Positions 21,419 through 64,000 of a DNA stretch of 64,000 nucleotides are shown in pieces. Within the stretch, counting starts at the first letter, position 1. Each line of letters begins with the position of its first letter. Made by a program: the position numbers and the translations under genes. This stretch comes from Candidatus Omnitrophota bacterium (GTDB taxonomy: Bacteria; Omnitrophota; Gorgyraeia; Duberdicusellales; 4484-171), in NCBI GenBank assembly GCA_024231025.1, contig JAAEQW010000120.1, forward strand, positions 2,324 through 66,323. The letters are read 5' to 3'. The notes below the pieces were generated by a model. The model was not told the origin of the DNA. It ran no database searches and worked only from the letters and a program-made list of their open reading frames with translations.

Positions 21419-21419
21419 A

Positions 21420-24112: not shown

Positions 24113-24152
24113 AGGTGATTTACCGCAGCAGAAAATAGAGAGTAAAAGTGTA

Positions 24153-24827: not shown

Positions 24828-24832
24828 CTGGC

Positions 24833-45917: not shown

Positions 45918-46833
45918 AAAATCTTATCAAATTCTGTGTCGCCTCTAACTCCATCTGAATACGTGACTCTTTTGTCAAAGTAGCCACGTGAGGAGTTAAA
46001 ACAATATTCTCGATATCGCAAAGTTTTCCTTTATAAGGCTCTTGCCCAAAAACATCTAAGCCAGCACCAGCCAAATGGCCATCTTTTAAGGCATCGTATA
46101 AAGCATTCTCATCAACAAACTGACCACGGGCAACGTTAATCAGCATTGCGCCTTTCTTCATAGAAGAAATTTCTTTCTTGCCCAAAACAAATGGAGCGTC
46201 TTCTCTGAAGGTAATATGAATACTTACAATGTCACAAGCTAAAAGCAATTGGTCAAGGGCAATAATTTTTACGCCTGCCTGCTTTGCCCAATCAAGATCT
46301 GGCGCAATATCGCATCCATAAACCTTTGCGCCTAAAGATCTTATAAGTTCGGCTGTGCGCCGCCCTATTCTTCCTAAACCAATAATGCCAAATGTCTGTT
46401 CACTTAAAAGATTGCCGGTTTTTTTCTCCCAGCGCCCAGCCTTCAGAGATGCCGTTTGAACTGAAACCCTCTTCAAAAGATCAAAAGCAAATCCAACGGT
46501 CAACTCAGCAACCGGCTGGCTGACAACATCAGGCGTATTGCGCACAGCTATACCCCTTTGTTTAGCTTTATCAAGATCAATATTATCAATTCCAACGCCT
46601 AGGCGCGATATGCACTTTAACTTTGGCATGCTCTCGATGACTTGTGAATTAAACGGTTCAAGGCCAGCTATTGCTCCCTCGCAATCACCACCCATATCCA
46701 TAAGCTCATCGGCTGTTAACCGACGACCAAGCGAGTTTATGCGATAGCTCAAACCGCTTCGATCCAAAAGTTTAAGCGGCTGATCACCGTGTTTAGCAAA
46801 TGTTGATGCCGAAATAAATATCTGTCCCTTCAT
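45901..46833 (-). CDS. D-isomer-specific 2-hydroxyacid dehydrogenase (NAD-binding), 310 aa
   Basis: FGIIGLGRIGRRTAELIRSLGAKVYGCD is the classical GxGxxG(17x)D NAD motif of the D-2-HADH family, and the HVA catalytic-His region is present (LTPHVATLTKES). Confidence 0.85.
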   Translation of the reverse strand: MKGQIFISASTFAKHGDQPLKLLDRSGLSYRINSLGRRLTADELMDMGGDCEGAIAGLEPFNSQVIESMPKLKCISRLGVGIDNIDLDKAKQRGIAVRNTPDVVSQPVAELTVGFAFDLLKRVSVQTASLKAGRWEKKTGNLLSEQTFGIIGLGRIGRRTAELIRSLGAKVYGCDIAPDLDWAKQAGVKIIALDQLLLACDIVSIHITFREDAPFVLGKKEISSMKKGAMLINVARGQFVDENALYDALKDGHLAGAGLDVFGQEPYKGKLCDIENIVLTPHVATLTKESRIQMELEATQNLIRFFETNK

Positions 46834-47618
46834 GCGATCTCTCCTTTAAGTTGTGCTATTTTTTCGTAAAAATCTTTTTGAGTTAAGTCATTTCTTAAAA
46901 TATCCTCTACACTCGCTACATCATCTTCTCGATCTACACCCACTGTTCTCTGGGAGTATATTACTCCTCTTATTGAGTAGCCATGCTCTAAGATGCGTAA
47001 AAAATCGACTGACTCCACCACCTCTTTTGGCGTAGGATCAAGACGAGAAAATTTATGTAAAAATTCTTTAGTAAATGCCGATATGCCTGTTTGACGATAC
47101 ATAGGACATTTATCATCAACTCTAAAGTAAGGTATTGGCGATCTGGAAAAGTACATCACATCATTTTTATTATTGATCACTGCCTTAACAATATCAATAT
47201 CGTCCAAATCTGCCTTATCTTCAATGACTGATAACAGGTTTGTGCAAATCATTGAATCACACTCAAACATGGGCTTTACCAAAACCTCTAAAACCTGCGG
47301 ATCAAACAAGGGTTCATCACCCTGGACTATTACAACAATATCAGCATCCAGATCCATTGCCGCCTCATCAACCCTGTCAGTACAACGTTGGTGAGTATCT
47401 TTTGTCATAACAGCCTTACCACCGGAGTTGTTCACTACGTCAAAAATCTCTTTATCGCAAGTGGCAACATATGTTTGGTCTATCACCTTTGACAAAGATA
47501 CTCTTCTTCTTACATGTTCGATCATCGGCAGATCTAATATTTTTGCCAAAGGTTTACCTGGAAAACGCGAAGCAGCCATCCTGGCTGGTATTATTGCAAC
47601 AACTTTTTTCTTACTCAT
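46830..47618 (-). CDS. CMP-3-deoxy-ulosonic acid cytidylyltransferase (KdsB-like, CTP_transf_3 family), ~262 aa
   Basis: VVAIIPARMAASRFPGKPL matches the KdsB IIPAR..S.R.PGKPL motif. The ATG at 47618 overlaps the stop of the downstream SDR gene (ATGA). Confidence 0.7.
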   Translation of the reverse strand: MSKKKVVAIIPARMAASRFPGKPLAKILDLPMIEHVRRRVSLSKVIDQTYVATCDKEIFDVVNNSGGKAVMTKDTHQRCTDRVDEAAMDLDADIVVIVQGDEPLFDPQVLEVLVKPMFECDSMICTNLLSVIEDKADLDDIDIVKAVINNKNDVMYFSRSPIPYFRVDDKCPMYRQTGISAFTKEFLHKFSRLDPTPKEVVESVDFLRILEHGYSIRGVIYSQRTVGVDREDDVASVEDILRNDLTQKDFYEKIAQLKGEIA

Positions 47619-48364
47619 AATGGCATCACTCCACAATCAACATTTATTGATTGCCCGGTTATGGCTGAGCTTGAGTTTGAAGCTAAAAATAGACAGCTGT
47701 CGGCCACCTCTTTTGCCTGCGGCAAACGCTTTAAACCCGATTGAGATTTAGCAAAACTACTTAAGTAACTTTTAATATTTTTACCTGCCGTTGGTGACAC
47801 CTTACTTTTTAGAGCCTGCAGCAAACCTTTGGTCTCGATATACACCGGGCAAATTGCATTAACCCTTATTCCATCCTTACCCAGCTCCTTTGACAAAGCT
47901 TGAGTCAATCCGGTTACTCCAAATTTAGAAGCGCAATATACAGAGTTATTCGCGCTACCCCGACGACCAGCAAGGCTCGAAATATTTATTATAGCTCCAC
48001 CTTTATTCAAGCTCTGTGCTGCAACCTTACATCCTAAAAAAGTACCTTTTAAGTTAGTATCGATCATGGCATTCCAAAAATCATTAGTTACCTTGCCAAT
48101 CGGTGACCATTTAGAAAAACCTGCGCAGTTAATATAAACATCCAAGCGCTTGGTCCATTTTTTTGCTGACTGGACCACCTTTTGGTGATCACTCTCTTTG
48201 CGTACATCACACTTGATGAAGCGAACATCTTCACCCAACTCTCTTGACAACCCTGTGTCGGTGCGAGCAGCAACAACAACTCGATATCCGGCCTGTGCAA
48301 AGCTGCGAGTTATTTGGGCCCCTATACCCTTATTCCCGCCAGTAATAACTACAGTTTTTTTCAT
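47615..48364 (-). CDS. classical SDR oxidoreductase, 249 aa
   Basis: TGGNKGIG, NISS...YCASK (YxxxK). Confidence 0.85.
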   Translation of the reverse strand: MKKTVVITGGNKGIGAQITRSFAQAGYRVVVAARTDTGLSRELGEDVRFIKCDVRKESDHQKVVQSAKKWTKRLDVYINCAGFSKWSPIGKVTNDFWNAMIDTNLKGTFLGCKVAAQSLNKGGAIINISSLAGRRGSANNSVYCASKFGVTGLTQALSKELGKDGIRVNAICPVYIETKGLLQALKSKVSPTAGKNIKSYLSSFAKSQSGLKRLPQAKEVADSCLFLASNSSSAITGQSINVDCGVMPL

Positions 48365-48378
48365 TTATAAATCCTTTT

Positions 48379-49158: not shown

Positions 49159-49171
49159 AATTAAACTCCCC

Positions 49172-49807
49172 TTAATTATTTAACAAAAAATTTTGAACTT
49201 GGGCCATGTTATTAAATATTGGAACATCGTCTCTACCAAATGGTTTCTTGCTATCGCGACCAATAAAGAATGTTTCTGTATCTTGCGCACTCTTTAAATC
49301 CTCAGGTGTATCGCCAATAAAAACCATATCGCCCAGAGAAACGCCTTCTCGCCCTGCAATATCTTTTAAAGTATCAACTTTAACCCAGGGATAGGCATAA
49401 ACATCTTTAAAATACTTGGCAATGCCTCGCTTATTAAGTATGCGCATAAATTCATCTTTTGGATTAACTGTAGCAATATACATCGGAACCTTATCATAAA
49501 AATAATCTAAAAAATCCATTGCCCCATCAACATAGGGGCAAGCTATGATAGATTTTAAAACATAGTCCGAATATTGCGCACACATTTGATCTTCTAGCTG
49601 TTGAGTATATGTTTTATTCAGAATATGCTCAGTTATATATTTAAATTTTGTATACCTTATAGTTGCGTTGTTGGCAAGATGATAGCGCATTATCTCATCT
49701 ATCTTATCAGGATAATTTTTAAAAAGATCTTCGAAAGCCTTATCCTTTATACCAACAGACTCAACCAAAGTACCGTCAAAGTCTAAAGCTATAACCTTAA
49801 ATTGCAT
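49172..49807 (-). CDS. HAD-superfamily phosphatase, 211 aa
   Basis: Motif I IALDFDGTLV (DxDGT) and FIGDTPED (motif IV). Confidence 0.75.
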   Translation of the reverse strand: MQFKVIALDFDGTLVESVGIKDKAFEDLFKNYPDKIDEIMRYHLANNATIRYTKFKYITEHILNKTYTQQLEDQMCAQYSDYVLKSIIACPYVDGAMDFLDYFYDKVPMYIATVNPKDEFMRILNKRGIAKYFKDVYAYPWVKVDTLKDIAGREGVSLGDMVFIGDTPEDLKSAQDTETFFIGRDSKKPFGRDDVPIFNNMAQVQNFLLNN

Positions 49808-49808
49808 A

Positions 49809-50588
49809 TTAACTTACTATTCCTTGCATCTTCTTACCCCACTCTAACAAAATAAAAATATCAGATGCCAAAACCACAAATGTGTACCCTTGATCAAATT
49901 TTTCACAAACACTTTTTTTACAAGGAGTTATATCCTGGGTTCCACACCCCTTGCCAAACTTTTTACAAGCATCAATTACCCGACCGGCTGCTTTTTTAAC
50001 CTTAGCATGCTCAATCTGCCCTGGTATCCCTAATGATCCTGATATATCATAAGGACCGATCATTACTCCATCAATAGCATCAACCGAAAGTATCTTATCA
50101 ATATTATCTACCGCGGTTATTGACTCTATCTGCACGATTAAAAACCCCGACTCATTCCAATCATTAATATACTGGTCAAAATCAAACCCATAACCTTGGG
50201 CACGAGAGATGCCAAATCCACGAATACCCTGTGGCGGATACTGCATCCACGAAGCTATCTCTCTTGCTTGGCTTGCAGTTTCAACCATTGGGACAATAAG
50301 ACCGTCGGCTCCAGAATCAAGCAGACGTTTGATCATCTCCATATTGTGCGTAGCTACTCTCGGCAAGCATAATGAGCCGCCGGATTGGCTTGCAGCAATA
50401 ATCCTCTGGGACTGCTCCTGGCTAATTGTACTATGTTCAATGTCAATTCCTATAAAATCAACACCAATCTTAGCGAACATTTCGGTAACCGATGGGTGGG
50501 CCAGAGACGTCCAAGCCGCAAACATGGTTTTACGACTTCTTAACTTGCCCTTAAGCTCGAATCTCTTCTGATTTAATTTTTTGGTCAT
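49809..50588 (-). CDS. HpcH/HpaI-family class II pyruvate aldolase (2-keto-3-deoxy-sugar-acid aldolase family), 259 aa
   Basis: GVDFIGIDIEH, GADGLIVPMVETA, YPPQGIRGFG and LIVQIES are the conserved HpcH/HpaI blocks. Confidence 0.85.
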   Translation of the reverse strand: MTKKLNQKRFELKGKLRSRKTMFAAWTSLAHPSVTEMFAKIGVDFIGIDIEHSTISQEQSQRIIAASQSGGSLCLPRVATHNMEMIKRLLDSGADGLIVPMVETASQAREIASWMQYPPQGIRGFGISRAQGYGFDFDQYINDWNESGFLIVQIESITAVDNIDKILSVDAIDGVMIGPYDISGSLGIPGQIEHAKVKKAAGRVIDACKKFGKGCGTQDITPCKKSVCEKFDQGYTFVVLASDIFILLEWGKKMQGIVS

Positions 50589-51270
50589 TGTTTACCTCTG
50601 ATTTTGCTGCATCATTTAAAAACATTTGCACCGTCTCTTTAGTATACGGATGCACAATCATCCCCTCAACTAACTTAGGTAACGCAGTTACAATATGAGC
50701 GCCAGCGTGCAACCACTCAATAATATTGAGAACTTCGCGAGTTGAGCCAATTATAATCTTTGCCTTCAGCTGAAAGTCGTCGAGAAGTTTGCGTAATTTT
50801 TTAATCTCTTCGATTGAGCTATAACCCATGTTGTTAACCCGGCCACCGAACAAAGAAACATAAGTAGCTCCTGCCATAGCTGCCACAAAGCATTGTTGCG
50901 CACTCATCATTGCTGTCACATTAACCCGAACGTTATGCATTGTCTCAAGCTCATGCACAACAGCTAAGTTATCCAACTCACCATTGGGGCCATGCACAGT
51001 AATCTTCACATTGATATTCTCGGCAAGAGAAGCAAAATACTTACCTTGAGCGATCATCTCTTTGCGATCGTTGGTTGTAACCTCAATAGAAAGCGGATAA
51101 GGATGAATAAGCTCCGCGATCTGGACTGCCACCTTTTCTACGGCGGCGATACCGCCGCGAACACCATCTTTAAGTAAAATCGTTGGATTAGTGGTAACTC
51201 CTCGAATTACCCCTAACTCATGAAACTTTTTGATGTCCTCTAACTTTCCTGTGTCTAAAAATATTGCCAT
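50551..51270 (-). CDS. transaldolase-family protein of fructose-6-phosphate aldolase / TalC type, 239 aa
   Basis: MAIFLDTGKLEDIKKFHELGVIRGVTTNPTIL matches the FSA/TalC N-terminus (LDTANV...GVTTNPSI) and the ~220-aa size class. Confidence 0.85.
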   Translation of the reverse strand: MAIFLDTGKLEDIKKFHELGVIRGVTTNPTILLKDGVRGGIAAVEKVAVQIAELIHPYPLSIEVTTNDRKEMIAQGKYFASLAENINVKITVHGPNGELDNLAVVHELETMHNVRVNVTAMMSAQQCFVAAMAGATYVSLFGGRVNNMGYSSIEEIKKLRKLLDDFQLKAKIIIGSTREVLNIIEWLHAGAHIVTALPKLVEGMIVHPYTKETVQMFLNDAAKSEVNNDQKIKSEEIRA

Positions 51271-51292
51271 AACAAACCTCCTCTAAAAATTT

Positions 51293-51898
51293 TTACTTCG
51301 CCGATAAAGTAGTCTCCCACTTATTACCCATAACCATTACTCGTGGATCAGAAACAATCATATGCCAAATAATAGCCTGAAAAGCTTCTGCCTGTGGGGT
51401 TAACATATTAGGCTGCGAAGCCGGCATCACAATACAAACATCCGCAACTTTTGGCGTATAACCGCCGGTTCTACCTACAATACCAAAAATCTTTGCCTTT
51501 TGTGATTGAGCGTACTCTAAAGCTTCAACGATATTGGTACTAATATTTTTCTCCTTATTGCCTCCGCCTACAGAAAATACCATAATGCCATCATTAGCGT
51601 TTAGCCTACTTCCCTTAAGCCATCCGCTAAAAATTGTGCTCCATCCTTCATCGTTAGCTCGAGCCGTAAGCTCAGCTACATTATCCACAGGCGAGTAAGC
51701 CTCAAAACCACCAATTTTACGAAAATCGTTTACCGCATGGGCACAGTTAGCTGCACTGCCACCTACGCCGATAAAAAATAGTCGTCCACCTTTTTTGCGT
51801 ATATCCAGCAATAAGGCAATCATCTCTTCCAATTGATCCCTGTCAACCGCGTTCAGGATATCCACGATACTTTTTAAATAATCATTTGCATACGACAT
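51293..51898 (-). CDS. SIS-domain sugar-phosphate isomerase, GmhA (sedoheptulose-7-P isomerase)-like, ~202 aa
   Basis: RLFFIGVGGSAANCAHAVNDF...GIMVFSVGGG are SIS signatures. The start ATG at 51898 has GGAGG 7 nt upstream. The track's longer ORF to 52063 would overlap the upstream gene and lacks an RBS. Confidence 0.7.
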   Translation of the reverse strand: MSYANDYLKSIVDILNAVDRDQLEEMIALLLDIRKKGGRLFFIGVGGSAANCAHAVNDFRKIGGFEAYSPVDNVAELTARANDEGWSTIFSGWLKGSRLNANDGIMVFSVGGGNKEKNISTNIVEALEYAQSQKAKIFGIVGRTGGYTPKVADVCIVMPASQPNMLTPQAEAFQAIIWHMIVSDPRVMVMGNKWETTLSAK

Positions 51899-51911
51899 AG
51901 TATAGCCTCCT

Positions 51912-52859
51912 TCAATTACTACCATTAGCCAACCGCGCCAAGCGATGTTGTGCTGGCCCATCATATAAATAATAGGCTGGTGGCATGCACTTATAGTATT
52001 TTTGTTGCCATGGGCACAATTCATCAACGATAATTTCATCATCGCTTCTCCATGGATAATCAAAAAAACGCGTCACTGTACCATCCGGCAGCATTTTTTC
52101 TACTCGATTGCAACAATATATATACGGATTAATGATCTTGGATGCGCGCAAAATACGAAAATATTGATCAATAATTTCAGGATTCATCTCCTGGAATGAA
52201 GCAATATTAGCAGCTAAACCAATAGGGCTGCCTGATAGCAATTCGCAGTTATCTGCCTGCAATGCAATAACCGAAACTTTTTTATCGCGAAGAGCTAATT
52301 GCATTTGATCTGCATTTTCGACCAAAGCCAACGATACACCTTTATTTGCCTTCAAGATACACGCTATATCTACCGCTAAAACTGGGGTTAAATTAACACA
52401 AATTATCTTAGTAATTTTGTTGCTCGGCAAGCAAGATAACAACATATTTGTCAAATTAGCGAACCCATCGCCAATTATACAAATATTGCCAGATAATTCA
52501 TTTAAACTTATCTTCTCCATCAGAAACGCCAAAGTCAAAGCCTGACGCAACTGATCAAGGTCAAAACATCTCCCCTGTTTTTTTGCAATCGCTTTACCGC
52601 TCTTGCAAATTTCTTGAATAAGATTCTTTTGTCCCCATCGATAATATGGCTTTTGCATCAAATGATGTACAAAATTAATAGAAAAATTATACTTTCTGTT
52701 ACCGCCAAAACCCTTCATTCCAGAAAAATTTCCATCATTAAAAGAAAAATCTTTCAAATAAAACTGCCAGTGAGAAGACCGCCCTTCCTCTAAATTATTC
52801 GCCAAAACTGCCAGTCGTGATATTGCTTCATCATTAAATTTTAATTGATCGGTAATCAC
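51912..52859 (-). CDS. hypothetical protein, 315 aa, possibly a Rossmann/methyltransferase-like fold
   Basis: NICIIGDGFANLTNML resembles a SAM motif I but is not diagnostic. Confidence 0.3.
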   Translation of the reverse strand: MITDQLKFNDEAISRLAVLANNLEEGRSSHWQFYLKDFSFNDGNFSGMKGFGGNRKYNFSINFVHHLMQKPYYRWGQKNLIQEICKSGKAIAKKQGRCFDLDQLRQALTLAFLMEKISLNELSGNICIIGDGFANLTNMLLSCLPSNKITKIICVNLTPVLAVDIACILKANKGVSLALVENADQMQLALRDKKVSVIALQADNCELLSGSPIGLAANIASFQEMNPEIIDQYFRILRASKIINPYIYCCNRVEKMLPDGTVTRFFDYPWRSDDEIIVDELCPWQQKYYKCMPPAYYLYDGPAQHRLARLANGSN

Positions 52860-53888: not shown

Positions 53889-54910
53889 TTATAAACCTCC
53901 TGGTATGTTTGAGAATCAATGTAGGCTTTCTCAATAATCTTCATTACCTTTAATGCATCCTGTGATGAACTAATATCAACTGTTTTATCCTGATCAATGC
54001 AATCTAAGAACTCTTTAACCTCTAAATCCCAAGAGAGATCGCGATCAAAATGAGTGATCTCTTCCTCAGGATTACCCACAGCGTAAGCTTCATCCTCAAA
54101 CTGACGTTTACCCAAGATTAACCGCTCACGGCCATAGCTACCGCTCTTTGAAAGAAGACCCTCTACCGTCGCGTATCCTTCCTCTAAAATCATTTCCAAT
54201 TTAAAAGTATGCTTCCATAAAGTAGCAGAAGAGTGTAGCGAAGCTGTCTGACCGCTTTTGTTTTTCATAATCATGTGAGCGTTGTCTTCGATAGCAAACT
54301 TCCAAAAGGAGTTACTAGTAAAACACTTAACTTGTTCAAAATCATTACAAAAATAAAGAAACAAATCTAGCATGTGAATACCCTGGTCGAGCAAAATTCC
54401 ACCCCCGGAAACACTACGATCATTACGCCAGGAGCTGGGAAAATTTTTGCCACCAGATTTACCATAAACACCTCTGAGAGATACTATATCCCCAAGTCTG
54501 CCACTATTAATAATCGCTCTAGCCTTTATGATTCCTGGATGGAAACGATGATTAAAGCCAAACATTAGCTTTATTTTTTTATTACGCTTTTCGCTTTTTA
54601 TAATATCTTCTATATCTTTTACATCGCGACCAGGCGGTTTTTCGCAAAAAATATGCTTACCGGCATTCATCCCGGCTATACACAACTCAGGCGAAGAAGA
54701 GTTAGGCGTACAAACAAAAACTATGTCTAAAACATCTTTAAAGATATCCTCAGCTTTATCATAAAGCCTGCAACCCGTAATTTTACTACGTATTTGGGAA
54801 TTAACCTCAAAAATGCCAACAAGCTCCAAGCAAGGATTAGCCTCAATAACCTTTCTTCTAATCTCTCCCATATAACCATAACCGATAATCGCTGCTTTCT
54901 TAACTTTCAT
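53885..54910 (-). CDS. Gfo/Idh/MocA-family NAD(P)-dependent sugar oxidoreductase, 341 aa
   Basis: KAAIIGYGYMG...VFVCTPNSSSPELCIAGMNAGKHIFCEKP is the N-terminal Rossmann domain with the EKP motif. Confidence 0.85.
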   Translation of the reverse strand: MKVKKAAIIGYGYMGEIRRKVIEANPCLELVGIFEVNSQIRSKITGCRLYDKAEDIFKDVLDIVFVCTPNSSSPELCIAGMNAGKHIFCEKPPGRDVKDIEDIIKSEKRNKKIKLMFGFNHRFHPGIIKARAIINSGRLGDIVSLRGVYGKSGGKNFPSSWRNDRSVSGGGILLDQGIHMLDLFLYFCNDFEQVKCFTSNSFWKFAIEDNAHMIMKNKSGQTASLHSSATLWKHTFKLEMILEEGYATVEGLLSKSGSYGRERLILGKRQFEDEAYAVGNPEEEITHFDRDLSWDLEVKEFLDCIDQDKTVDISSSQDALKVMKIIEKAYIDSQTYQEVYK

Positions 54911-55448
54911 TCAAAACCACCTCTGTTCTTTTCATCACATAATCAACCAACTTTTTAACCGATTCTGCTGCTGTTTCTTTTTCCGAATCTATTATTAGGT
55001 CCGGCATTGTCGGCGCCTCATAATCCACTCCACCAAAACCGATTAGATCGATTATTTCGCGATCTTTAGCTTTACAATACAAGCCCTTCACATCACGTTG
55101 GGTTACGCAACCTAAGCCAGCGCTAAAATAAATTTCATAAAAATTGGGTGCTAGCTTAGAGCAAGCATCGCTACGGGATACTTTAAACGGCGATATTATA
55201 GGTACCATGATGACATCATAGCTATCTTTATTTTCTTCACAAATTAAAGTAATCAAACGATTATTCTCTTTGATATCTTCCGGAGTAAAGCTCAAATGCT
55301 GGTGATACCTTTCTCGTACCTGATCGCCGTCTACGATAAATGTCATCAGACCTTTCTTTTCTAAAACTTTAGCCGCCTGCACGGCAACGGTTGTTTTGCC
55401 TGAACCGGAAAGCCCCGTAAACCAAAAAATGTTAGAGTTTTTTTTCAT
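54900..55448 (-). CDS. cysC: adenylylsulfate (APS) kinase, 182 aa
   Basis: FWFTGLSGSGKTTVA P-loop and the FIVDGDQVR segment match APS kinase. Confidence 0.9.
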   Translation of the reverse strand: MKKNSNIFWFTGLSGSGKTTVAVQAAKVLEKKGLMTFIVDGDQVRERYHQHLSFTPEDIKENNRLITLICEENKDSYDVIMVPIISPFKVSRSDACSKLAPNFYEIYFSAGLGCVTQRDVKGLYCKAKDREIIDLIGFGGVDYEAPTMPDLIIDSEKETAAESVKKLVDYVMKRTEVVLNES

Positions 55449-57622
55449 ACAAAAATTTCACGTCCTTCTTTAGTATAACCTAAAACCATATCGCTTATCT
55501 CCCCCCTGGTCATCCAAGTTGGCGGACGTACGCCTTGAACGAAACTATCTCTTACTGCTGTTCCTGAAATTGACTTTTTTTGTTCATCAATATGCGTACA
55601 TTGTGCAACATAATTATCGCAGGCTGGGCAAAATTTAATCTCATCAAACATTACAGGAATAATCCCAATATCACCTAAATCATAAAATAGCTGTTGTGAC
55701 GCGGTAGGCGGATAAAATTTACCCACTCCAGTATGGTCACGACCAATAATAAAATGGCTACAGCCAAAGTTTTTTCGGCAAAGAGCAGTGAATACTGCCT
55801 CTCTTGCCCCCGAATAACGAGAATAGGTAGCAAAAGCTCCGATAAACGCCTTATCGGGAGGTAAGAAGCCGCCGTCTAACATAACCTGATACCCCTTAAG
55901 TAAGACATCAGAAGCAAAGTCACCCTTCTTTTTCTCACCGATAACCGGACTCACCAATAAGCCATCACAGTGGGTCCTTTCTAAGGCAATTTTCTGTAAA
56001 GCTTCATGGCCGCGATGAACAACATTACGAGTATGAAACCCCACTACACGACTCCACCCCTTACTATCAAAAATATGGCGCAGCTCTTGAGGCGTAAAGT
56101 TATATATTTTATGAGCACAACGCCTTTTCCTAACCAATGTTACTTCTCCCCCTATGAAACAATCCCCTTTAGCTTTTAAACCAATCACTCCAGGATGGGT
56201 TTGGTCCAATGTGCCAAACCATCTTTTACATACCGATTCAAAAGGAAACTTATAGATATCAGTTATTTTAAGAGTAGCGTAAACCTCCTTATCAACTTTG
56301 TTTGATAAAGCAATCATCTGTCCGGCTGTTAGCCCAACAAGATCTGCACTGTGCTGCTGTAAAACTATCGGTAAGGTCCATATCGCTCCATCAACCAACT
56401 TGTAGGTGTCCAAAACTGAATCGATTTGGATTCGATCCATAAACCCCTCTAAAGGAGAATATGTCCCTACGGCTATTTGCTCGCAATCCATGATCGCCGC
56501 ATCGCTGACTTCCAACATGCGAAAACTATTAACCATTCCCCAATCAGGGTCCTTGTCCCAACGTTGCACTAGTTCTCCTCCGTGAGGCTCAACCAAAAGA
56601 GAGCCTACAGAAGTTGAACTTTGAGTCAAATCCTGCTTTTGGGAGAGATTAAATTGATTAATTAATCTGACCACCATCGAAGCTGCCTGAACAGGGCGCT
56701 TGCCAATGGCGGTTTCCGCCGCTAAAACTAATCCATCCGCACCCATCGCTAGAGAATTAATCACATCATGCACCTCAGCTCGAGTAGGAGTAGCTTTTTC
56801 AATCATTGATTCAAGAAGATTGGTCGCGATATAAACCGGTTTTCCAACCTGATTGGCACGAGAAACGATTTTTTTCTGATAAAAAGGTACCTGTTCTATT
56901 TTAATCTCTCGAGATAGATCCCCTCGATCAATTAAAATAGCATCGGTGACAGAAAGAATATCATCTAAATTCTTATACCCCCGCTGACTCTCTATCTTAG
57001 AAATAATAAAAGCCTTGCCCTGAGTGAGGCGACGCATAGTTTCAACATCTTTCTTAGTATTAGCAAAAGAAAGAGCATAATGTTTAATATCCAGCTTATT
57101 GCCGATTTCAATTGCCTCAATATCCTTTTGTGTAAAAGCTGGTAGCTCTATCTGGCGCAAAGAAGTAACTGCTTTATTACTACCTACCCAGCCACTAGAT
57201 ATCACCCTGGCCCGGATAATACCTGACTCTATAGAAATAACTCTAATTAAGGCTGAATCAAAATCAATACTCAACAAATCACCTTCGGCTAACTGATCAA
57301 TGATAAAAGCCGGATAAAGCGGTATGTTATCTAAGCTATCTGCTCGGCTATTACCCAGCACTATTTTTTGATTGGCTTTTAGAAATTTTTCTTTCACTCC
57401 AATAAAACCAGTTCTTATCTGGGCTCCTTCACTATCAAGGCATATCGAAACGCTGCTGTAACGACGGATAAAATTAACACGATCCTCTATATCATCTAAT
57501 TTAGTATGCGATAAGTTAATACGAAATAAACTTACCCCCACCTCTTCTAGACGAACTATTGTTTTTTCATTAAATGATGCTGGGCCTAATGTGCATAATA
57601 TTTTCTTTTTACTTTTGATCAT
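55445..57622 (-). CDS. in-frame fusion protein: N-terminal pyruvate-kinase barrel domain + C-terminal ATP sulfurylase (sulfate adenylyltransferase), ~725 aa
   Basis: PK part: ILCTLGPAS, RINLSH, ICLDSEGAQIRTG, IISKIESQRG, ILIDRGDLS and YIATNLLESMIEKATPTRAEVHDV...LAAETAIG cover all PK barrel blocks, including the catalytic K/E/D/T positions, with no C-terminal allosteric domain. Sat part: LEVSDAAIMDCEQIAVGTYSPLEGFM, GAIWTLPIV, GFHTRNVVHRGHE and RYSGAREAVF...HFIIGRDHTGVG. The ORF is continuous. The ATG at 57622 was preferred over the TTG at 57658. Confidence 0.85.
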   Translation of the reverse strand: MIKSKKKILCTLGPASFNEKTIVRLEEVGVSLFRINLSHTKLDDIEDRVNFIRRYSSVSICLDSEGAQIRTGFIGVKEKFLKANQKIVLGNSRADSLDNIPLYPAFIIDQLAEGDLLSIDFDSALIRVISIESGIIRARVISSGWVGSNKAVTSLRQIELPAFTQKDIEAIEIGNKLDIKHYALSFANTKKDVETMRRLTQGKAFIISKIESQRGYKNLDDILSVTDAILIDRGDLSREIKIEQVPFYQKKIVSRANQVGKPVYIATNLLESMIEKATPTRAEVHDVINSLAMGADGLVLAAETAIGKRPVQAASMVVRLINQFNLSQKQDLTQSSTSVGSLLVEPHGGELVQRWDKDPDWGMVNSFRMLEVSDAAIMDCEQIAVGTYSPLEGFMDRIQIDSVLDTYKLVDGAIWTLPIVLQQHSADLVGLTAGQMIALSNKVDKEVYATLKITDIYKFPFESVCKRWFGTLDQTHPGVIGLKAKGDCFIGGEVTLVRKRRCAHKIYNFTPQELRHIFDSKGWSRVVGFHTRNVVHRGHEALQKIALERTHCDGLLVSPVIGEKKKGDFASDVLLKGYQVMLDGGFLPPDKAFIGAFATYSRYSGAREAVFTALCRKNFGCSHFIIGRDHTGVGKFYPPTASQQLFYDLGDIGIIPVMFDEIKFCPACDNYVAQCTHIDEQKKSISGTAVRDSFVQGVRPPTWMTRGEISDMVLGYTKEGREIFV

Positions 57623-57638
57623 ATGTAGCCTGCCTTTA

Positions 57639-58838
57639 TTACAATTGTTCTTTACCAAGCACTGGTTGCAAAAATTGCTTCCCAGATATTACACGTAAAT
57701 AATACTTAAAAAATAGTTTAACCCTTAACAGATACCAAATAACATTTGTAATAATAACTTTAAATTTAGATTTTTTCAAATTGTTCCAAATGTACTGAGG
57801 AGAAAAAAATCTTAGCTCAAAACTTAATGGGAGCAAAATCAAAAACGGAACCAAAAATATATCAAAAATACCTATCTTTTTGAGAGAATAACCATAAAAA
57901 ACAAGCCGATTGTTCATAATGCAATTAAGCACGGACTTATCGTGCCAGGATAATTTTTTCTCCCAATTATTAACCAATGCTTTTGCCGACCACCCTTTAT
58001 CCTTATGTTTTGCGGTAGAAAGGGCATCCCCGTGCCACGTTAACCCAGCCCATGTCGATCTTTTTAGGCAATCATTATGAGAAATACCTAGCCATTGACA
58101 CAAACCGTTTAATACCTTGTCGTTTCCCATATCCTCTAATTTAATTGCACAATATTCGTGATTAAGCCTCTCCAAAGCTTCCACATCCGCTAAGATTCTT
58201 CTTATATAGAAATATAAGAATGCTTCGTTGTCTTTTAGCAAATCGAATTTACGCCAATGTAAAATTCCTGATACAAAATTTGCCCGAGGGTCTCTGGTTG
58301 TGCAGATAATCTTACTGGTAGGAAAATCATCCATCAGCAAATCTAAACGATCAAAACCATGTTCATGATGGAAAATAATCTTTTTGCTCTCAATATCCTG
58401 ACCTAATACAATTGCATAAGCCCCGTAAATAGCCACAAAAATAGTTTTCAAATCAAGTCTTCTGTCAACTAATAGTTGGACAAATATTTCTTTGAAGCAA
58501 GAAATATCAATATCAATGGATTTATTGCGTCCATCACCCAGCTTATTCTTTCGCTCAAATAAATCATACCTGGACTTAAACCGTTCAATAAAAAACCCGA
58601 CGAACTCATCAATAAAATCTCTAGAATCAAATTCTCCAGCCTTAACACACACCGATCTGGCCCAAAAATCATGGAATAAAAGCGACCCGTTAAAAGTAGC
58701 AACCTCTGGATGTGAATCAAGTAAACTCTGCAAGAGATCGCTGCCGGTTCTTCCGGTTGTCACTAATATATATACCGGTAAACCCAAAAGCTTTTCCATT
58801 ATTAATGCACTATCCTTTAATTTCTCATCAGTTACCAT
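57639..58838 (-). CDS. PAPS-dependent sulfotransferase with C-terminal membrane anchor, 399 aa
   Basis: The 5'-PSB-like motif YILVTTGRTGSDLLQSLL and the 3'-PB-like motif ICTTRDPRANFVSG are present. A C-terminal hydrophobic stretch reads IFDIFLVPFLILLPLSF. Confidence 0.7.
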   Translation of the reverse strand: MVTDEKLKDSALIMEKLLGLPVYILVTTGRTGSDLLQSLLDSHPEVATFNGSLLFHDFWARSVCVKAGEFDSRDFIDEFVGFFIERFKSRYDLFERKNKLGDGRNKSIDIDISCFKEIFVQLLVDRRLDLKTIFVAIYGAYAIVLGQDIESKKIIFHHEHGFDRLDLLMDDFPTSKIICTTRDPRANFVSGILHWRKFDLLKDNEAFLYFYIRRILADVEALERLNHEYCAIKLEDMGNDKVLNGLCQWLGISHNDCLKRSTWAGLTWHGDALSTAKHKDKGWSAKALVNNWEKKLSWHDKSVLNCIMNNRLVFYGYSLKKIGIFDIFLVPFLILLPLSFELRFFSPQYIWNNLKKSKFKVIITNVIWYLLRVKLFFKYYLRVISGKQFLQPVLGKEQL

Positions 58839-58888: not shown

Positions 58889-59887
58889 CTACTCATCGTC
58901 AATATTTCCAATTTTGCGATCGCTATCAGCCCATCCCAAAAAAGATGACACATAAACGATATCTAATAGCCTTTTAAAAAGCCTATAGCCTTTTTTAAAC
59001 AACCAAAATCTTAGAATTCTGTTTTTCTTGGCAGCTTGAGCAATAATTTTTAAATATTCTCTACTCTCTGCATCACTTAAAAGACCTTCTTTCTTAGCCA
59101 AATCAACAATACCACCAGCATAATCATATACCCCGTACACTAAACAAGTAACAATAGATTTGCGAAGCTTATCTTTTGCATAAGCCAGATCATTCAACTT
59201 TTTTAAATATTTAATCCAAATATCTACATGCTTAAAGTATAGCGCATCACCAAAGACTAGTTGCCCTTTACCGCCGTAATTAAAAAAAGTTTTCCTCTTC
59301 CAGTATTGCCTTCTAATATCAATAAGGGTAAAACCTTTTTCATCTAAAAATCCATCTACATCTCTAAAAACGGGCTGGTCTGTATACAATTTGAGAAATT
59401 CTACCTCGCACTGTATGCCAAAAGTATGACTCAAGCACTCTTCTGCTCCACCCTTTAGAATAAAAAGCTCCGTTCCCTGGGTATCCAATTTAATAAAATC
59501 AGCGTCTTCTAATACATTCTCGGAAAAGAGCTTATCCAGAGTGGTTATCTTATGCTCCGGAATATCTACAGTACTAATAACTTTAAATCTTTCTACCTGA
59601 GGATAATCTTCCAACACATCAAAATTAGGCCTAAGGCAAGACGACTTTCCGGACTCCTGAGAAACATAATATTTTTGCTTAACCACATTTTCATAAAGAG
59701 CATAATTAAGATACACGACTTGATCGGTCGACTTTAATTTCGTAAACTCTCTATCATCTGGTTCAAACGCAATGACCTTCATCCGCTTCGATATAACATC
59801 CCACTTTGTAGCAATTCCCCCCATAGAACCGACATCAATCAAGATATAGTGTCCCTCCAACAATTCTTCTATTAGTTTTTTCATCAC
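58889..59887 (-). CDS. FkbM-family SAM methyltransferase, 332 aa
   Basis: YILIDVGSMGGIATKW...KVIAFEPDDREF resembles the FkbM (Methyltransf_21) hhDVGAN.G...AFEP core. Confidence 0.55.
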   Translation of the reverse strand: MMKKLIEELLEGHYILIDVGSMGGIATKWDVISKRMKVIAFEPDDREFTKLKSTDQVVYLNYALYENVVKQKYYVSQESGKSSCLRPNFDVLEDYPQVERFKVISTVDIPEHKITTLDKLFSENVLEDADFIKLDTQGTELFILKGGAEECLSHTFGIQCEVEFLKLYTDQPVFRDVDGFLDEKGFTLIDIRRQYWKRKTFFNYGGKGQLVFGDALYFKHVDIWIKYLKKLNDLAYAKDKLRKSIVTCLVYGVYDYAGGIVDLAKKEGLLSDAESREYLKIIAQAAKKNRILRFWLFKKGYRLFKRLLDIVYVSSFLGWADSDRKIGNIDDE

Positions 59888-59915: not shown

Positions 59916-60677
59916 TTACCAGGCGCTCCATCCACCATCAACATTCAAAACTTCACCTGTAACATAGCTTGAATTATCTGTCGCCAAAAAAAGACAAGCA
60001 TTGGCTACATCACGCGATTTACCCCATTTTTTCTGAGGCGTTCTATCTAATGTAAATTGATAGAGATCATTTTTTTTCTGAAAACTTTCCGTGTAAGACG
60101 TCTCACAAAATCCAGGAGCGATAACGTTAACATTTATATTATAGCTGGCCCACTCTAACGCTAAACATTTTGTTAAAGATATCATGCCCCCTTTTGATGC
60201 ACCGTAAACAGAAAGATCCGGAAGCCCTAAAGTACCTACAATAGAGGCGATATTAACTATTTTACCGCACCCTTTGTTAACCATATGTTTCCCTGCTTCA
60301 CGACAAAAAAAGTATACACTATCTAAATTATTAGCCATTACCCCTTGCCAGTCTTGGGTAGTTGTATCAAGGAATTTCTTTCTAAAACGCATACCGGCAT
60401 TATTTATAAGCACATCTATACAACCAAACTTATCTACGGTTTTTACGATAAAATCTTTTACCGAAACCTCGCAAGACACATCCCCTTGGAACAACAATAT
60501 TTTATCCTCATCTAAGCTAACTTCTTTCTTTAAGGAAGAAAAATCATTTGAGTCGCGAGTAATAAGCGCTAATCTTGCTCCTTGTTCATAAAAAAGTTTT
60601 GCAACCTCTCTTCCTATTCCTTTACCAGCTCCGGTAACAACACAAACCTTATCTTTTAGTAAAAATTGATTTTGCAT
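59916..60677 (-). CDS. classical SDR oxidoreductase, 253 aa
   Basis: VCVVTGAGKGIGREVA, NIAS...YGASK. Confidence 0.85.
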   Translation of the reverse strand: MQNQFLLKDKVCVVTGAGKGIGREVAKLFYEQGARLALITRDSNDFSSLKKEVSLDEDKILLFQGDVSCEVSVKDFIVKTVDKFGCIDVLINNAGMRFRKKFLDTTTQDWQGVMANNLDSVYFFCREAGKHMVNKGCGKIVNIASIVGTLGLPDLSVYGASKGGMISLTKCLALEWASYNINVNVIAPGFCETSYTESFQKKNDLYQFTLDRTPQKKWGKSRDVANACLFLATDNSSYVTGEVLNVDGGWSAW

Positions 60678-60678
60678 T

Positions 60679-61857
60679 TTAACTCCTTATAAGATAATTA
60701 AATGCCTGGGCAACCAGATCATCGGAAACATCACCATAGACCCCGCATTCTCCTATCACCTGCGGCAAAACAAATCGTAACTGACTATTTTTTTTCTTTT
60801 TGTCTTTATAAACATTCCTCACGCATTCATCAATAAGATCTTGTCGCCGAAAATTTATTGCCTTTGAATCAACCCTTGTCGGAAGACCATATTTTTTAAG
60901 TATTGCCTCATGTTCGCGCAAAATATTATCTGACTTGCCAAAATATTTAACAGCAATATACGCCGCACCAATCATCCCAATAGAAACACCCTCTCCATGA
61001 CGATAAGTCTCAGACAAAACATCAGTTGATATCTCTACAGAATGACCCAATGTATGTCCATAATTCAACCTTAATCTTTTCCCTTGCTCTCTTACATCAC
61101 CCGATACATGGTCAAGCTTTATTTCAATGGCACGAGACATAATATACAACAACGCATCCTGTTGGCGACTTAATACTTTTTCTGAGTTAACATCAAGATA
61201 CGCAAAGAGCTCTTTATCCGCAATAACTGCACATTTTATTATTTCTGCCAAGCCTGACCTAAAATCTCGATCGGACAAAGATTTAATAAAATCAAAATCA
61301 ATCACATCAAGCATGGGATGATAATAATTGCCTATAGCATTAATTGTTTTTCTGAAATTTATAGCTACCTTTCCTCCAATAGAGCTGTCAATCATCGCCA
61401 TTAGAGTAGTCGGAATGCTAATAAAATTAACTCCCCTCAGGTAAGTGCTTGCTACAAAACCAACCAAATCACCAATAACTCCGCCACCAAAAGCAATAAT
61501 TGTAGAATCACGCGAAAAGCCCTTTATTTCAAGAAACTCATAAAGGCCAATTGCACTAATGATAGTTTTGTTATGCTTACCCGACTTTAAAAGGTGGGTA
61601 TGCACTTGATATTGAGCACAAGTTAAGGCATCTTGAACCTTACCTTTAACTAAATCTTCAAAATAAGGATCAAAAACAATAAGAACTTTTTTATTCTTTG
61701 TTTTCGAGTTTAGATTCTCTATGAGGCTATCCGGTAACAGATCTCGACCCAGAAGTATATTATAGCAAGAACTGTCCAATTTAACTTCATAATTATTATA
61801 CATCACATTGCTCTTCATTATCTTTCTCCTATACCGCAAAAAGTCCGGTATCAACAA
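60679..61857 (-). CDS. 3-dehydroquinate-synthase-like (DHQS family) sugar-phosphate cyclase/oxidoreductase, 392 aa
   Basis: GGGVIGDLVGFVASTYLRGVNFISIPTTLMAMIDSSIGGKVAINF and LNYGHTLGHSVE match the AroB/sedoheptulose-7-P cyclase metal and NAD binding blocks. The true substrate cannot be decided by eye. Confidence 0.75.
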   Translation of the reverse strand: MLIPDFLRYRRKIMKSNVMYNNYEVKLDSSCYNILLGRDLLPDSLIENLNSKTKNKKVLIVFDPYFEDLVKGKVQDALTCAQYQVHTHLLKSGKHNKTIISAIGLYEFLEIKGFSRDSTIIAFGGGVIGDLVGFVASTYLRGVNFISIPTTLMAMIDSSIGGKVAINFRKTINAIGNYYHPMLDVIDFDFIKSLSDRDFRSGLAEIIKCAVIADKELFAYLDVNSEKVLSRQQDALLYIMSRAIEIKLDHVSGDVREQGKRLRLNYGHTLGHSVEISTDVLSETYRHGEGVSIGMIGAAYIAVKYFGKSDNILREHEAILKKYGLPTRVDSKAINFRRQDLIDECVRNVYKDKKKKNSQLRFVLPQVIGECGVYGDVSDDLVAQAFNYLIRS

Positions 61858-62491
61858 TTAGCTCCGCAATCTTAAAATCTTCAGGGGTATCGATGTCATG
61901 CCCCTCAAAATGGTTAATATTCTTAACGTAAGGTCGAGTTGAAATTCTTTGCCCTGTCTTCTCGAAAACCTCTCTCTTAAACACATACAAACTTGACTGT
62001 TCCGCGACCACCGGATCTATATCCTGAGTGCGCGGGGTTGGCTTATCAAGAGAATAATTCAAAGGCTTACCGTTAAACCAGCAAAACTTGTTTATTGCAT
62101 AAGCGGTAAAGCTTGAGTCGTATTCATCAGAATTAACTCTGCCCAAACAATCAACAATAGTTTCAGGCTTCAAAAAGGGTGATGTAATATGTAAAAGAAC
62201 TACTGTGTCCGCGCTATCCAATTTTAAAAATTCTCTTATCAGGTCTTGAATCGTTGTATTTTGATCATCAAGGGTATCCGGCCGCTTTAAAAATTTATAT
62301 TTTAGCCCAGGCTGAATATGTTCACAAATAGATGGCTCGGAAGCAAAAATTACAACCTCATCAATATCCGAAACTTTGTTTAAAGCACGCACTGTATAGT
62401 TCACCAAAGGCACTCCTCCCAACTCTTTTATATTCTTAGAAGGCAAACGCTGACTGTTAAGCCTCGACGGTATAAACCCCACTGTTCTCAT
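61829..62491 (-). CDS. acylneuraminate/ulosonic-acid cytidylyltransferase (NeuA/PseF-like CTP_transf_3), 220 aa
   Basis: VGFIPSRLNSQRLPSKNI matches the I-P-A-R-x-x-S-x-R-x-P-x-K-N motif of CMP-NeuAc/CMP-Kdo synthetases. Confidence 0.7.
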   Translation of the reverse strand: MRTVGFIPSRLNSQRLPSKNIKELGGVPLVNYTVRALNKVSDIDEVVIFASEPSICEHIQPGLKYKFLKRPDTLDDQNTTIQDLIREFLKLDSADTVVLLHITSPFLKPETIVDCLGRVNSDEYDSSFTAYAINKFCWFNGKPLNYSLDKPTPRTQDIDPVVAEQSSLYVFKREVFEKTGQRISTRPYVKNINHFEGHDIDTPEDFKIAELIVDTGLFAV

Positions 62492-62503
62492 AGCTTGTCC
62501 TCC

Positions 62504-63964
62504 CTATTGCAAAGATTTTCTGATAAAATTATAAAAATTACTACTGTTGTCTTCCTCATATCTAAATCGACTAACATCGATATCTTTTTTCTTGATGCCT
62601 TTGAGCCTGCTTAACATAAAATTTATAGCGTCATAAGACTTATCCTTGCTATTCACATAACAAACAGGAAAGATATCGGGTGATTGATAATTATTAAACA
62701 CTCCAGTCTTAAAATGATTGTACCTATCCCATTTATCATAGAGCAATACCGGTATTCTATTTATCAATGCCTCATCGATAACCGTAGATGAATAGCTTAT
62801 TAACATATCTGAAGCTGAAAGAACATCCTCAAATTTTCCTAATCTGCTTATACTGTACTTACTTGACTCTGGTAAAAATAATTTCATCTCCTCGTCACTT
62901 AAATCAAAGCCGGGATGCACTCTTATGATTAATTTGGTGTTATCCATTTTGTTTATCGCACCAACCACATCAGCTAGCCCCGATAAATATTCATCCACTG
63001 TCTCTAGAAAATAAAATCTTTCAGACCCTATGGGCTTAACTGTCGTAGCGTGGAGAATCACTTGTTCATCCGGCAAAAAACTTAAGTGAGCCTTCTTTGT
63101 AAACTTATCTGTTTCAGTTATATCAGCAAAAATGAGTGGGGCCGTTAACACCTCTTTATTTTTTATCCATTCATACTTGTTCTTGAAATATCGAAAATGC
63201 TCTTGCTGCACAGGAGTGCTCAGAGCTACATGACTATAATCTCCAAGCATAAAACCTCTACACAGATTAAAAATCGATATCTCATGATACTGATTAATTG
63301 GCATAGGATGAGTGCCATGAGAGATAAATAAAGATGGCCTGTCAAGTTTAGGCAGCAACTCAGCGGCAACATACCACAATCCTCTACCAAATGGCGATAT
63401 CAACAGAACAATATTAAATTTCTGAGTCAAAGCTTTAAACTTATAGGACCACTCTACCATCTGACGAAGACGCCCCACAAAAACACTCCTCTTTTGGTCC
63501 ATAACTTGTTTAACGTTAACTCCATTATAGGTAAAGACACTTTCGCATTCGTCATCAAATAATTTTTCTAGACTTTTGGTAACGCCGGCTTGGTCTATTG
63601 AGCTATCCCGACTTTGCACAAAGTTAATATCTATAAAAAAGACACCTGAAAATAATCCCCATATTAACCCACCATATCTCTGATACCACTTCAATCGCTT
63701 ATCATCTTTAAGAATTAAGAAGCTACTATGTGAGTTTTTAAATTTAACCTTATCTACCAATACTTTGAATCCATAGCTTAACGTAGGTAGCACAACCAGA
63801 ACCTTATTGAAAACTTTTAAGTACGCCTTTAATAAATCCAAAGAAAAATTATACATCGCCGACGCGTTCTCTTGCGTTCCGGTAAATCCTTTTTTCGCGC
63901 ACTCTTGGGAGTCCCCAAAATAATGAAATTTGATCTTATGCTTATCCGCGAACTTCTTTACCAA
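62504..63964 (-). CDS. GT-B-fold TagF/KpsC-like transferase (paralogue of 44481-45917), 486 aa; the upstream region runs to the window edge
   Basis: IIRVHP...DMLISYSSTVIDEALINRIPVLLYD resembles the TagF HP and ITDYSS motifs. Confidence 0.35.
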   Translation of the reverse strand: MVKKFADKHKIKFHYFGDSQECAKKGFTGTQENASAMYNFSLDLLKAYLKVFNKVLVVLPTLSYGFKVLVDKVKFKNSHSSFLILKDDKRLKWYQRYGGLIWGLFSGVFFIDINFVQSRDSSIDQAGVTKSLEKLFDDECESVFTYNGVNVKQVMDQKRSVFVGRLRQMVEWSYKFKALTQKFNIVLLISPFGRGLWYVAAELLPKLDRPSLFISHGTHPMPINQYHEISIFNLCRGFMLGDYSHVALSTPVQQEHFRYFKNKYEWIKNKEVLTAPLIFADITETDKFTKKAHLSFLPDEQVILHATTVKPIGSERFYFLETVDEYLSGLADVVGAINKMDNTKLIIRVHPGFDLSDEEMKLFLPESSKYSISRLGKFEDVLSASDMLISYSSTVIDEALINRIPVLLYDKWDRYNHFKTGVFNNYQSPDIFPVCYVNSKDKSYDAINFMLSRLKGIKKKDIDVSRFRYEEDNSSNFYNFIRKSLQ

Positions 63965-64000
63965 CAGCCCCGTAGATATTGCACCAAATATAGAGCCTTT

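Follow-up and report, generated by a model that had tools for sequence, protein, structure and literature searches.

Acidic sugars that are activated as cytidine monophosphate (CMP) conjugates, such as Kdo and the sialic, pseudaminic and legionaminic acids, shape recognition by hosts, phages and immune systems. All routes to these donors that we know of use a phosphoenolpyruvate-dependent synthase, and to our knowledge none of them draws on the shikimate intermediate 3-deoxy-D-arabino-heptulosonate 7-phosphate (DAHP). Here we describe a locus of a Candidatus Omnitrophota bacterium that may represent a different route. It lies at the end of a stretch of 64,000 nucleotides (contig JAAEQW010000120.1 of assembly GCA_024231025.1, positions 2,324 to 66,323; in the following the window, in whose numbering all coordinates are given) and pairs a gene for a 3-dehydroquinate synthase (DHQS)-like enzyme with one for a CTP_transf_3 cytidylyltransferase. 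Tentatively, we regard the four genes at 59916-64000 as a self-contained cassette. Judged from sequence comparisons, it might draw on a central metabolite to produce a seven-carbon acid, activated with CMP, that is placed on a surface glycan, possibly a non-carbocyclic 3,7-dideoxy-hept-2-ulosonic acid. Like the CMP-Kdo and CMP-sialic acid pathways (KdsA/KdsC/KdsB, NeuB/NeuA, and Kdn-9-P synthase with its phosphatase), such a route would start from a phosphorylated ulosonate made in a DAHP-synthase-type reaction, activate an acidic 3-deoxy-2-ulosonate by a CTP_transf_3 enzyme and transfer it from a CMP donor. In contrast to them, the cassette contains neither a dedicated synthase nor a HAD phosphatase, and the backbone would have seven carbons instead of eight or nine. 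The phosphate would presumably leave by an NAD(P)-dependent β-elimination, giving a terminal deoxy or keto function, and a reductase would act next.

The closest described relative of the DHQS-like enzyme is AroB (EC 4.2.3.4; TIGR01357; PDB entries 3okf and 1dqs), which has the same fold and the same residues for DAHP, phosphate and metal. Linkage of aroB to aroK is common, whereas the cassette gene is never linked to aroK and, in glycan loci, always has ketoreductase and cytidylyltransferase genes as partners. A carbocyclic precedent is provided by other enzymes of the DHQS superfamily, namely EEVS ValA, DDGS and DOIS BtrC, and by the pseudo-glycosyltransferase VldE: there, enzymes of this superfamily feed nucleotide-activated carbasugars to GT-B transferases. 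However, these systems use sedoheptulose 7-phosphate (S7P) or Glc-6-P, GDP instead of CMP, and an allylic valienol donor. A formal parallel to the proposed chemistry is the pair of NDP-hexose 4,6-dehydratase and 4-ketoreductase (RmlB/RmlD). It would share the oxidation near the leaving group, the elimination, the return of the hydride two carbons away and a separate reductase that fixes the stereocentre, but the folds are unrelated, since the dehydratase itself is a short-chain dehydrogenase/reductase (SDR), and the leaving group is phosphate here and water there.

All sizeable open reading frames (ORFs) from about 24 kb to the window end are located on the minus strand and together constitute a single long operon for glycan biosynthesis. 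Among its products are GT2 and GT4 enzymes, an initiating transferase of the WbaP/PglC type, a Wzy_C protein and NDP-sugar enzymes, as well as two B12-radical-SAM proteins and a sulfation set. A reading of the window made from the sequence only had placed a DHQS-like gene next to a CMP-sugar synthetase gene in a polysaccharide operon at 60679-62491; both ORFs are real, lie on the minus strand and are supported by Pfam. In the direction of transcription the cassette comprises a putative transferase with GT-B fold (62504..64000), the 220-aa CTP_transf_3 cytidylyltransferase, here called CTP_A (61829..62491; PF02348), the 379-aa DHQS-family enzyme (60679..61818; assigned by Pfam and NCBIfam profiles and by alignments) and a classical SDR ketoreductase of 253 aa (59916..60677; adh_short_C2, E=9e-64). 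A gene for an FkbM-family methyltransferase follows on the same strand (58889..59887; PF05050 and TIGR01444). It is possibly an optional accessory for O-methylation of the unit; among the other loci described below, FkbM homologues adjoin the cassette only in L001, L017, L028 and L053. For the transferase, the window holds the C-terminal ~490 residues of a 632-aa protein (P0121, 100% match): the ORF at 62504-63964, apparently of 486 aa, is the C-terminal three quarters of this protein, and its N-terminus lies past the window end. The mechanically called ORF of the DHQS-like gene opens at a TTG (61857) and yields a 392-aa form. The real start is the ATG at 61818, which is located 10 nt past the stop of the upstream CTP_transf_3 gene with GGAGAAA ahead of it. 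Exact-sequence look-ups of the 392-aa and 379-aa forms returned no entry, but a homology search yielded P0001, which is 100% identical to the 379-aa form, an NCBI protein of a metagenome-assembled genome (MAG) of Candidatus Omnitrophica. The SDR start lies 1 nt beyond the DHQS-like stop and AAGGAG lies within the 3' end of the DHQS-like gene; the SDR gene is translationally coupled to it.

On general sequence criteria the DHQS-like protein is an AroB. Pfam assigns DHQ_synthase (E=3e-37) and DHQS_C (E=1.9e-35), and the NCBIfam aroB equivalog TIGR01357 is passed with a narrow margin (318.5 bits, cut-off 305). The identity to AroB is about 35-38%, the protein is no larger than AroB save for short insertions, and every source that names such genes annotates them as '3-dehydroquinate synthase'. 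In a PDB search the top matches were all DHQS, with the true DHQS 3okf as the best (199.1 bits), while S7P cyclases and DOIS scored 118.7 (ValA), 110.8 (BtrC) and 99.4 bits (DDGS). An exhaustive HMMER search of 1.84 billion representatives revealed a gap in scores: the subfamily reaches 418 bits, a few intermediates lie between 330 and 260, and the mass of canonical AroB is found at 243 bits or below. A tblastn search of plasmids returned canonical aroB only, at no more than 36% identity, and cluster look-ups of ten metagenome homologues revealed no cultured organism among them. Classification as a bona fide AroB, which in a genome lacking another aroB would have suggested a housekeeping gene captured in the operon, stands as far as the NCBIfam threshold is concerned, whereas the genomic context and the signature residues argue against the housekeeping role.

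The active site was compared in two alignments, one of 117 close homologues with the AroB proteins of E. coli (NC_000913) and V. cholerae, the other of 60 of those homologues with 139 canonical AroB representatives from the HMMER search. A 14-residue active-site fingerprint for sugar phosphate cyclases is credited to Kean et al. 2014 (as cited in PMC4426668); our list of residues follows PMC6262012 and what is known of the structure 1dqs. All 13 DAHP, phosphate and metal residues are kept (R128, D144, K150, N160, E192, K195, K234, R248, N252, H255, H259, H274 and K340). Their conservation reaches 99-100% both among the 117 members of the subfamily and across 65 metagenome loci, and they are invariant or near-invariant in the 139 canonical AroB. 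Lys234 and Arg248 are presumably the contacts of the carboxylate. Eleven of the 13 constitute the DAHP pocket listed for the S. aureus and M. tuberculosis DHQS, and Asn252 corresponds to an Asn to which a role in opening the ring and in the aldol closure is ascribed (PMC6262012). Since all of these residues are kept, DAHP, or a 3-deoxy-ulosonate phosphate almost identical to it, is very probably the substrate rather than S7P. Kdo-8-P and nonulosonate-9-P were also considered as substrates and rejected, because no carbonyl β to the leaving group is possible in the pyranose and because NeuB is absent from most loci.

Among the canonical AroB columns that are conserved to at least 85%, 54 of 64 are kept in the subfamily. 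Non-conservative changes at conserved columns are E81K, L140T/M, K159I/V, F165Y, V171N and A277G, with E81K, K159I/V, L140T, F165Y and A277G at positions that are near-invariant in AroB and presumably belong to its cofactor site. Further marks are Q167H and a short insertion with an invariant Glu. Position 81 is Lys in 59 of 60 subfamily members and Glu in 128 of 139 canonical AroB; position 159 is Ile or Val in 59 of 60, compared to Lys in 131 of 139. Glu81, Leu142 and Lys161 of the A. nidulans enzyme contact NAD+. On this basis, the changes of the subfamily would cluster at the cofactor site and not at the substrate site. What the signature residues follow is the genomic context, not the overall identity. 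At only 35-36% identity, a distant clade (L098-L100) carries K81/Y165/H167 and adjoins an SDR and a KdsB-like gene, whereas all 11 low-identity homologues outside this clade with a residue at that column, including aroK-linked ones, have E81 and F165 and mostly Q167. The combination K81/I159/Y165/H167 offers a simple sequence test for separating cassette enzymes from AroB. Another DHQS-family representative (P0219, 386 aa, 39% identity) has lost 6 of the 13 residues (D144H, K150R, K234T, R248G, N252Q and K340R) and is presumably a different enzyme.

Close homologues were found in ten distinct loci, whose records name Zambryskibacteria, Deltaproteobacteria, Brocadiaceae, Ignavibacteriae, a Sulfurovum MAG, Saganbacteria and others. 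In all ten an SDR (59-72% identical) directly follows the DHQS-like gene and a cytidylyltransferase is adjacent, and in seven a protein of the 632-aa type is encoded directly upstream of the CTP_transf_3 gene. Genes for a HAD phosphatase or for a synthase of the DAHP-synthase, KdsA or NeuB type do not regularly belong to the cassette in these loci, which fits a central metabolite as the substrate and elimination of its phosphate. A metagenome scan revealed at least 507 related stretches, of which 80 were retrieved, 65 with at least 45% identity and 15 with at most 39%. The pairing singled out by the sequence-only reading is borne out by this set: in 46 of 52 testable loci the DHQS-like gene is directly preceded by CTP_A, the gene directly downstream encodes a carbonyl reductase in 49 of 51 (SDR in 41, aldo-keto reductase (AKR) in 8), and aroK is near none of the 65 subfamily loci. 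The low-identity hits differ, with 8 of 15 linked to aroK and 11 of 15 carrying the canonical E81/F165/Q167 residues. With about 75 loci from other uncultivated lineages, the pairing of DHQS-like and CTP_transf_3 genes is non-random and the gene is very unlikely to be a stray housekeeping aroB.

Variation among the cassettes is informative for the individual steps. In L038, L047, L054, L059, L062, L063, L065 and L080 an AKR (PF00248; 339 aa in L038) replaces the SDR and is followed by a third type of CTP_transf_3 homologue. Since the two reductase families are unrelated, the step after the DHQS-like enzyme should be a plain carbonyl reduction. The commonest layout, CTP_A, DHQS-like gene, SDR and KdsB-like cytidylyltransferase, occurs in 19 of 38 loci; two cytidylyltransferase homologues flank the DHQS-like and reductase genes in most cassettes (for example L030, L031, L034-L036 and L041-L043). 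Two copies of CTP_A are present in L007, L010 and L015, while the Zambryskibacteria cassettes contain no CTP_A and have the KdsB-like enzyme as sole cytidylyltransferase. Intermediate DHQS-like clades, i.e. L018 (P0214), L019/L020 (P0216) and L021 (P0217), have 40-45% identity, keep K81 and are accompanied by SDR and CTP_transf_3 partners. One of these triads adjoins two FliS genes and others lie within NeuB/DegT/HisH-HisF nonulosonic-acid clusters, a neighbourhood that places the product among the sialic-acid-like sugars of flagellins and surfaces. L019 additionally holds glutamine-kinase-like genes, with a trio of PPDK-like, GATase and NTP_transf_3 genes that resembles the phosphoramidate genes of Campylobacter.

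B12-binding radical-SAM proteins, two of which are encoded in the window (32928-35749, minus strand), recur near the cassette in L005, L007, L010, L016 and L017 together with SPASM radical-SAM proteins. This recurrence hints at C-methylation or another radical tailoring of the glycan.

The cytidylyltransferase CTP_A matches Pfam CTP_transf_3 (E=4.8e-19, 69.5 bits) and stays below every NCBIfam equivalog cut-off (PseF 81.9 bits, cut-off 205.7; KdsB models at most 48, cut-offs 155-281). It can be aligned over its full length with mouse CMP-Neu5Ac synthetase (1qwj, 53.8 bits, residues 7-211) and with the CMP-Kdn synthetase of Prymnesium (9t4z, 52.3 bits). In the alignment with 1qwj the N-terminal PSR...SKN segment is matched and PRTQD lies against PRRQD. 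Homologues with 58-84% identity stem from metagenomes and MAGs only, and those that are named carry a generic annotation; many of them lie on contigs equal in length to contigs with DHQS-like matches. CTP_A is a putative CMP-sugar synthetase, and among the homologues found its subfamily includes no characterised protein. A second cytidylyltransferase of the window is KdsB-like (46830..47636, minus strand, 268 aa; NF009905, 272 bits, cut-off 255). In many other genomes such a gene directly follows the reductase; here it is located 13 kb from the cassette.

For the SDR, sequence motifs (TGAGKGIG, NNAG, S...YGASK, and 'ITRD' after β2) were identified, and basic residues at the usual NADPH-indicating positions make it read as an NADPH-type enzyme. 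PDB and NCBIfam searches gave generic FabG, gluconate-5-dehydrogenase and KduD-like matches only. The 632-aa protein has no Pfam match, as is the case for most members of its family. Its AF2 model (pLDDT 91) has a GT-B fold with two Rossmann domains, the nearest structures being UDP-GlcNAc 2-epimerases, TagF and TarL. The C-terminal nucleotide-binding region matches the BFO_1060 nonulosonic-acid transferase family, although weakly (21.1 bits, cut-off 200). This family comprises the pseudaminic/legionaminic-acid transferases of Tannerella (PMC5420450). The T. forsythia enzymes and TagF-type proteins share the GT-B/TagB-like architecture, with a donor that releases CMP. From the model and this similarity, the 632-aa protein is a putative transferase for the CMP-activated unit.

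Taking residues, synteny and homology together, we propose the following sequence of reactions. The DHQS-like enzyme would bind DAHP and oxidise C5 by its bound nicotinamide cofactor, whereupon the 7-phosphate would be lost by NAD(P)-dependent β-elimination. This opening chemistry would be that of AroB, and no phosphatase would be required. If the product is a ulosonic acid, the remodelled cofactor site would then give the hydride back to C7, as in NDP-hexose 4,6-dehydratases, to produce a 5-keto-7-deoxy acid. The keto group would be reduced by the NADPH-type carbonyl reductase; the conserved synteny and the non-orthologous replacement of SDR by AKR are in line with such a step. By homology to CMP-sialic acid and CMP-Kdo synthetases, the CTP_transf_3 enzyme would join the tertiary hydroxy-acid centre to CMP, and the adjacent GT-B protein would pass the unit to the glycan, optionally with FkbM-type methylation. 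The composition of the product is expected to be C7H12O6 both for a 3,7-dideoxy-heptulosonic acid and for an isomeric quinate-type carbocycle. This corresponds to a glycan residue of 174.053 Da and a CMP adduct with [M-H]- of 496.097.

Several observations weigh against the ulosonic product. Cyclisation of the AroB type is largely spontaneous. The AroB substrate site is fully conserved in the cassette enzyme, including Asn252 with its part in ring opening and aldol closure (PMC6262012). Taken together, the conserved site and the spontaneous ring closure suggest that the enzyme simply makes 3-dehydroquinate. The changes at the cofactor site could be a mere switch from NAD to NADP. Furthermore, we know of no precedent in the DHQS superfamily for the return of a hydride to C7, and the scheme leaves the two cytidylyltransferase homologues of most cassettes unaccounted for. 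Nevertheless, we rank the ulosonic acid slightly above the carbocycle, because a CMP donor needs a ring oxygen for transfer and because of the flagellin and nonulosonic-acid context. This preference is a cautious one, in which the ulosonic form still falls short of even odds.

The strongest competitor, which we consider possible but rather doubtful, is the same cassette with a carbocyclic product. Here the enzyme would be a true DHQ synthase with altered cofactor use, and the reductase would turn 3-dehydroquinate into quinate or 3-epi-quinate. CMP would be attached at C1, a tertiary hydroxy-acid centre that is isosteric with the anomeric centre of a β-ulosonic acid, and a 'carba-ulosonic acid' would be installed. 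In that less probable case, the cassette would make CMP-quinate or CMP-epi-quinate as a carbocycle that imitates a CMP-ulosonic acid, and a GT-B enzyme would place this carbasugar on surface glycans or flagellin in many uncultivated bacteria. Carbocyclic sugars do occur in bacterial lipopolysaccharides, e.g. caryose and bradyrhizose. The 13 kept residues, among them the Asn of ring opening and aldol closure (PMC6262012), and the TIGR01357 score above the cut-off are what would be expected of a DHQ synthase. DHQ would offer a ketone to an SDR or AKR, and the formula of quinate, C7H12O6, equals that of the ulosonic alternative. The known pseudo-glycosyltransferases such as VldE, however, use an allylic donor, and no enzymatic precedent is known for displacement of CMP from a saturated tertiary carbon beside a carboxylate without a ring oxygen. 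Moreover, the neighbours of the cassette include flagellar and nonulosonic-acid genes, a setting in which one expects true ulosonic acids, and the signature residues tied to the context point to something beyond a duplicated AroB. If true, this product would be something categorically new, with transfer at a tertiary carbon that lacks a ring oxygen. The sequence-only reading had envisaged an unusual C7 unit on a cell-surface glycan, in the form of a cyclitol or carbasugar; the C7 unit is still the best reading, while its carbocyclic form is retained only as this rival with a limited chance.

Clearly less probable is an action of the DHQS-like enzyme on a CMP-linked or pre-formed ulosonic acid phosphate, e.g. 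a CMP-DAHP made by CTP_A in which cyclisation is blocked, or a role as oxidoreductase on such a sugar, an option that had been put forward from the sequence. The almost constant position of CTP_A directly upstream would agree with this order of events, and many cassettes have two cytidylyltransferases, maybe for two steps at the nucleotide level. However, the contacts to free DAHP are unchanged, phosphate binders included, and the protein is no larger than AroB save for short insertions. CTP_A is missing from the Zambryskibacteria cassettes, and no NeuB or KdsA match was found among the scanned ORFs of the window operon. Very improbable is an ordinary housekeeping aroB that came to lie inside the glycan operon by chance: the equivalog cut-off is passed and the genes are annotated as 3-dehydroquinate synthase wherever named, but the synteny is fixed in about 75 loci of other lineages and never includes aroK, the subfamily forms a separate score cluster (418 bits, compared to at most 243 for canonical AroB), and its signature residues are specific for the context. 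Least probable of all is a cyclase of the EEVS, DDGS or EVS-like type that makes a C7 cyclitol from S7P supplied by the transaldolase/FSA-like and GmhA-like (SIS) genes of the operon, since apart from the common DHQS-family fold and these genes the evidence speaks against S7P as substrate: the scores favour DHQS (199 bits; ValA 119, DOIS 111, DDGS 99), the DAHP pocket is kept with Lys234 and Arg248 invariant, and homologues of HpcH aldolase, transaldolase/FSA and SIS proteins are near the cassette in none of the 10 and none of the 65 loci.

If the proposal of a ulosonic acid is correct, a C7 member is added to the CMP-activated acidic sugars, with DAHP diverted through a repurposed AroB. Named carriers are Omnitrophota, Margulisiibacteriota/Saganbacteria, anammox Brocadiaceae, a Sulfurovum MAG and Zambryskibacteria of the candidate phyla radiation (CPR). 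Due to the label '3-dehydroquinate synthase' on cassette genes, the shikimate pathway may look present in such genomes when perhaps it is not. Literature searches that paired dehydroquinate synthase or heptulosonic acid with nonulosonic acid, CMP or cytidylyltransferase revealed no link of a DHQS homologue to a CMP-sugar pathway, one on DHQS residues likewise gave nothing, and no characterised or cultured cassette member turned up in the literature, in cluster look-ups or among CTP_A homologues. The SugarBase preprint contains unassigned CMP-linked species, none of them at the predicted mass, and mentions neither DHQS nor quinate.

The S7P-related genes of the window adjoin a second module (44481-52063, minus strand). 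The transaldolase-like and GmhA-like genes on which the S7P theme had been built are present (FSA/transaldolase-like, 50551-51270; SIS, 51293-52063), but their family matches are weak (146 bits, cut-off 246, and 45 bits, cut-off 209, respectively) and they are located 8-10 kb from the cassette. The module further contains an HpcH/HpaI-type pyruvate aldolase with a weak family match (49809-50588), an HAD phosphatase (49172-49807), all on the minus strand, two SDRs, the KdsB-subfamily cytidylyltransferase (46830-47636) and a 2-hydroxyacid dehydrogenase, besides a protein of 478 aa that matches TIGR04326 (LIC13510) weakly. The module appears to be a pathway of its own to a different CMP-activated acid, and could produce a Kdo-like acid via the pyruvate aldolase instead of a KdsA/NeuB enzyme. 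A supply of erythrose-4-P and pyruvate from here to a DAHP-like precursor can be imagined, but is unsupported.

The sulfation set of the operon (54900-58838, minus strand) consists of an APS kinase-sized gene, read by eye (54900-55448), a protein of 737 aa in which a pyruvate-kinase barrel is fused to PUA_2 and ATP sulfurylase domains (55445-57658) and a sulfotransferase (57639-58838), all on the minus strand; the fusion of pyruvate kinase and sulfurylase looks unusual. One GT2 gene of the operon is separated from a nucleotidyltransferase gene by an ORF of 320 aa (30739-31701, minus strand) with a Y1 transposase domain of the IS200-like type. At the distal end of the operon a CHASE2-adenylate/guanylate cyclase (21420-24005) and a cNMP-binding protein (25444-25896) are encoded. 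In the same region (18130-25896), TPR proteins adjoin a 5291-aa ORF with FecR, Big_6 and glucodextranase-B-like segments (1672-17547, minus strand).

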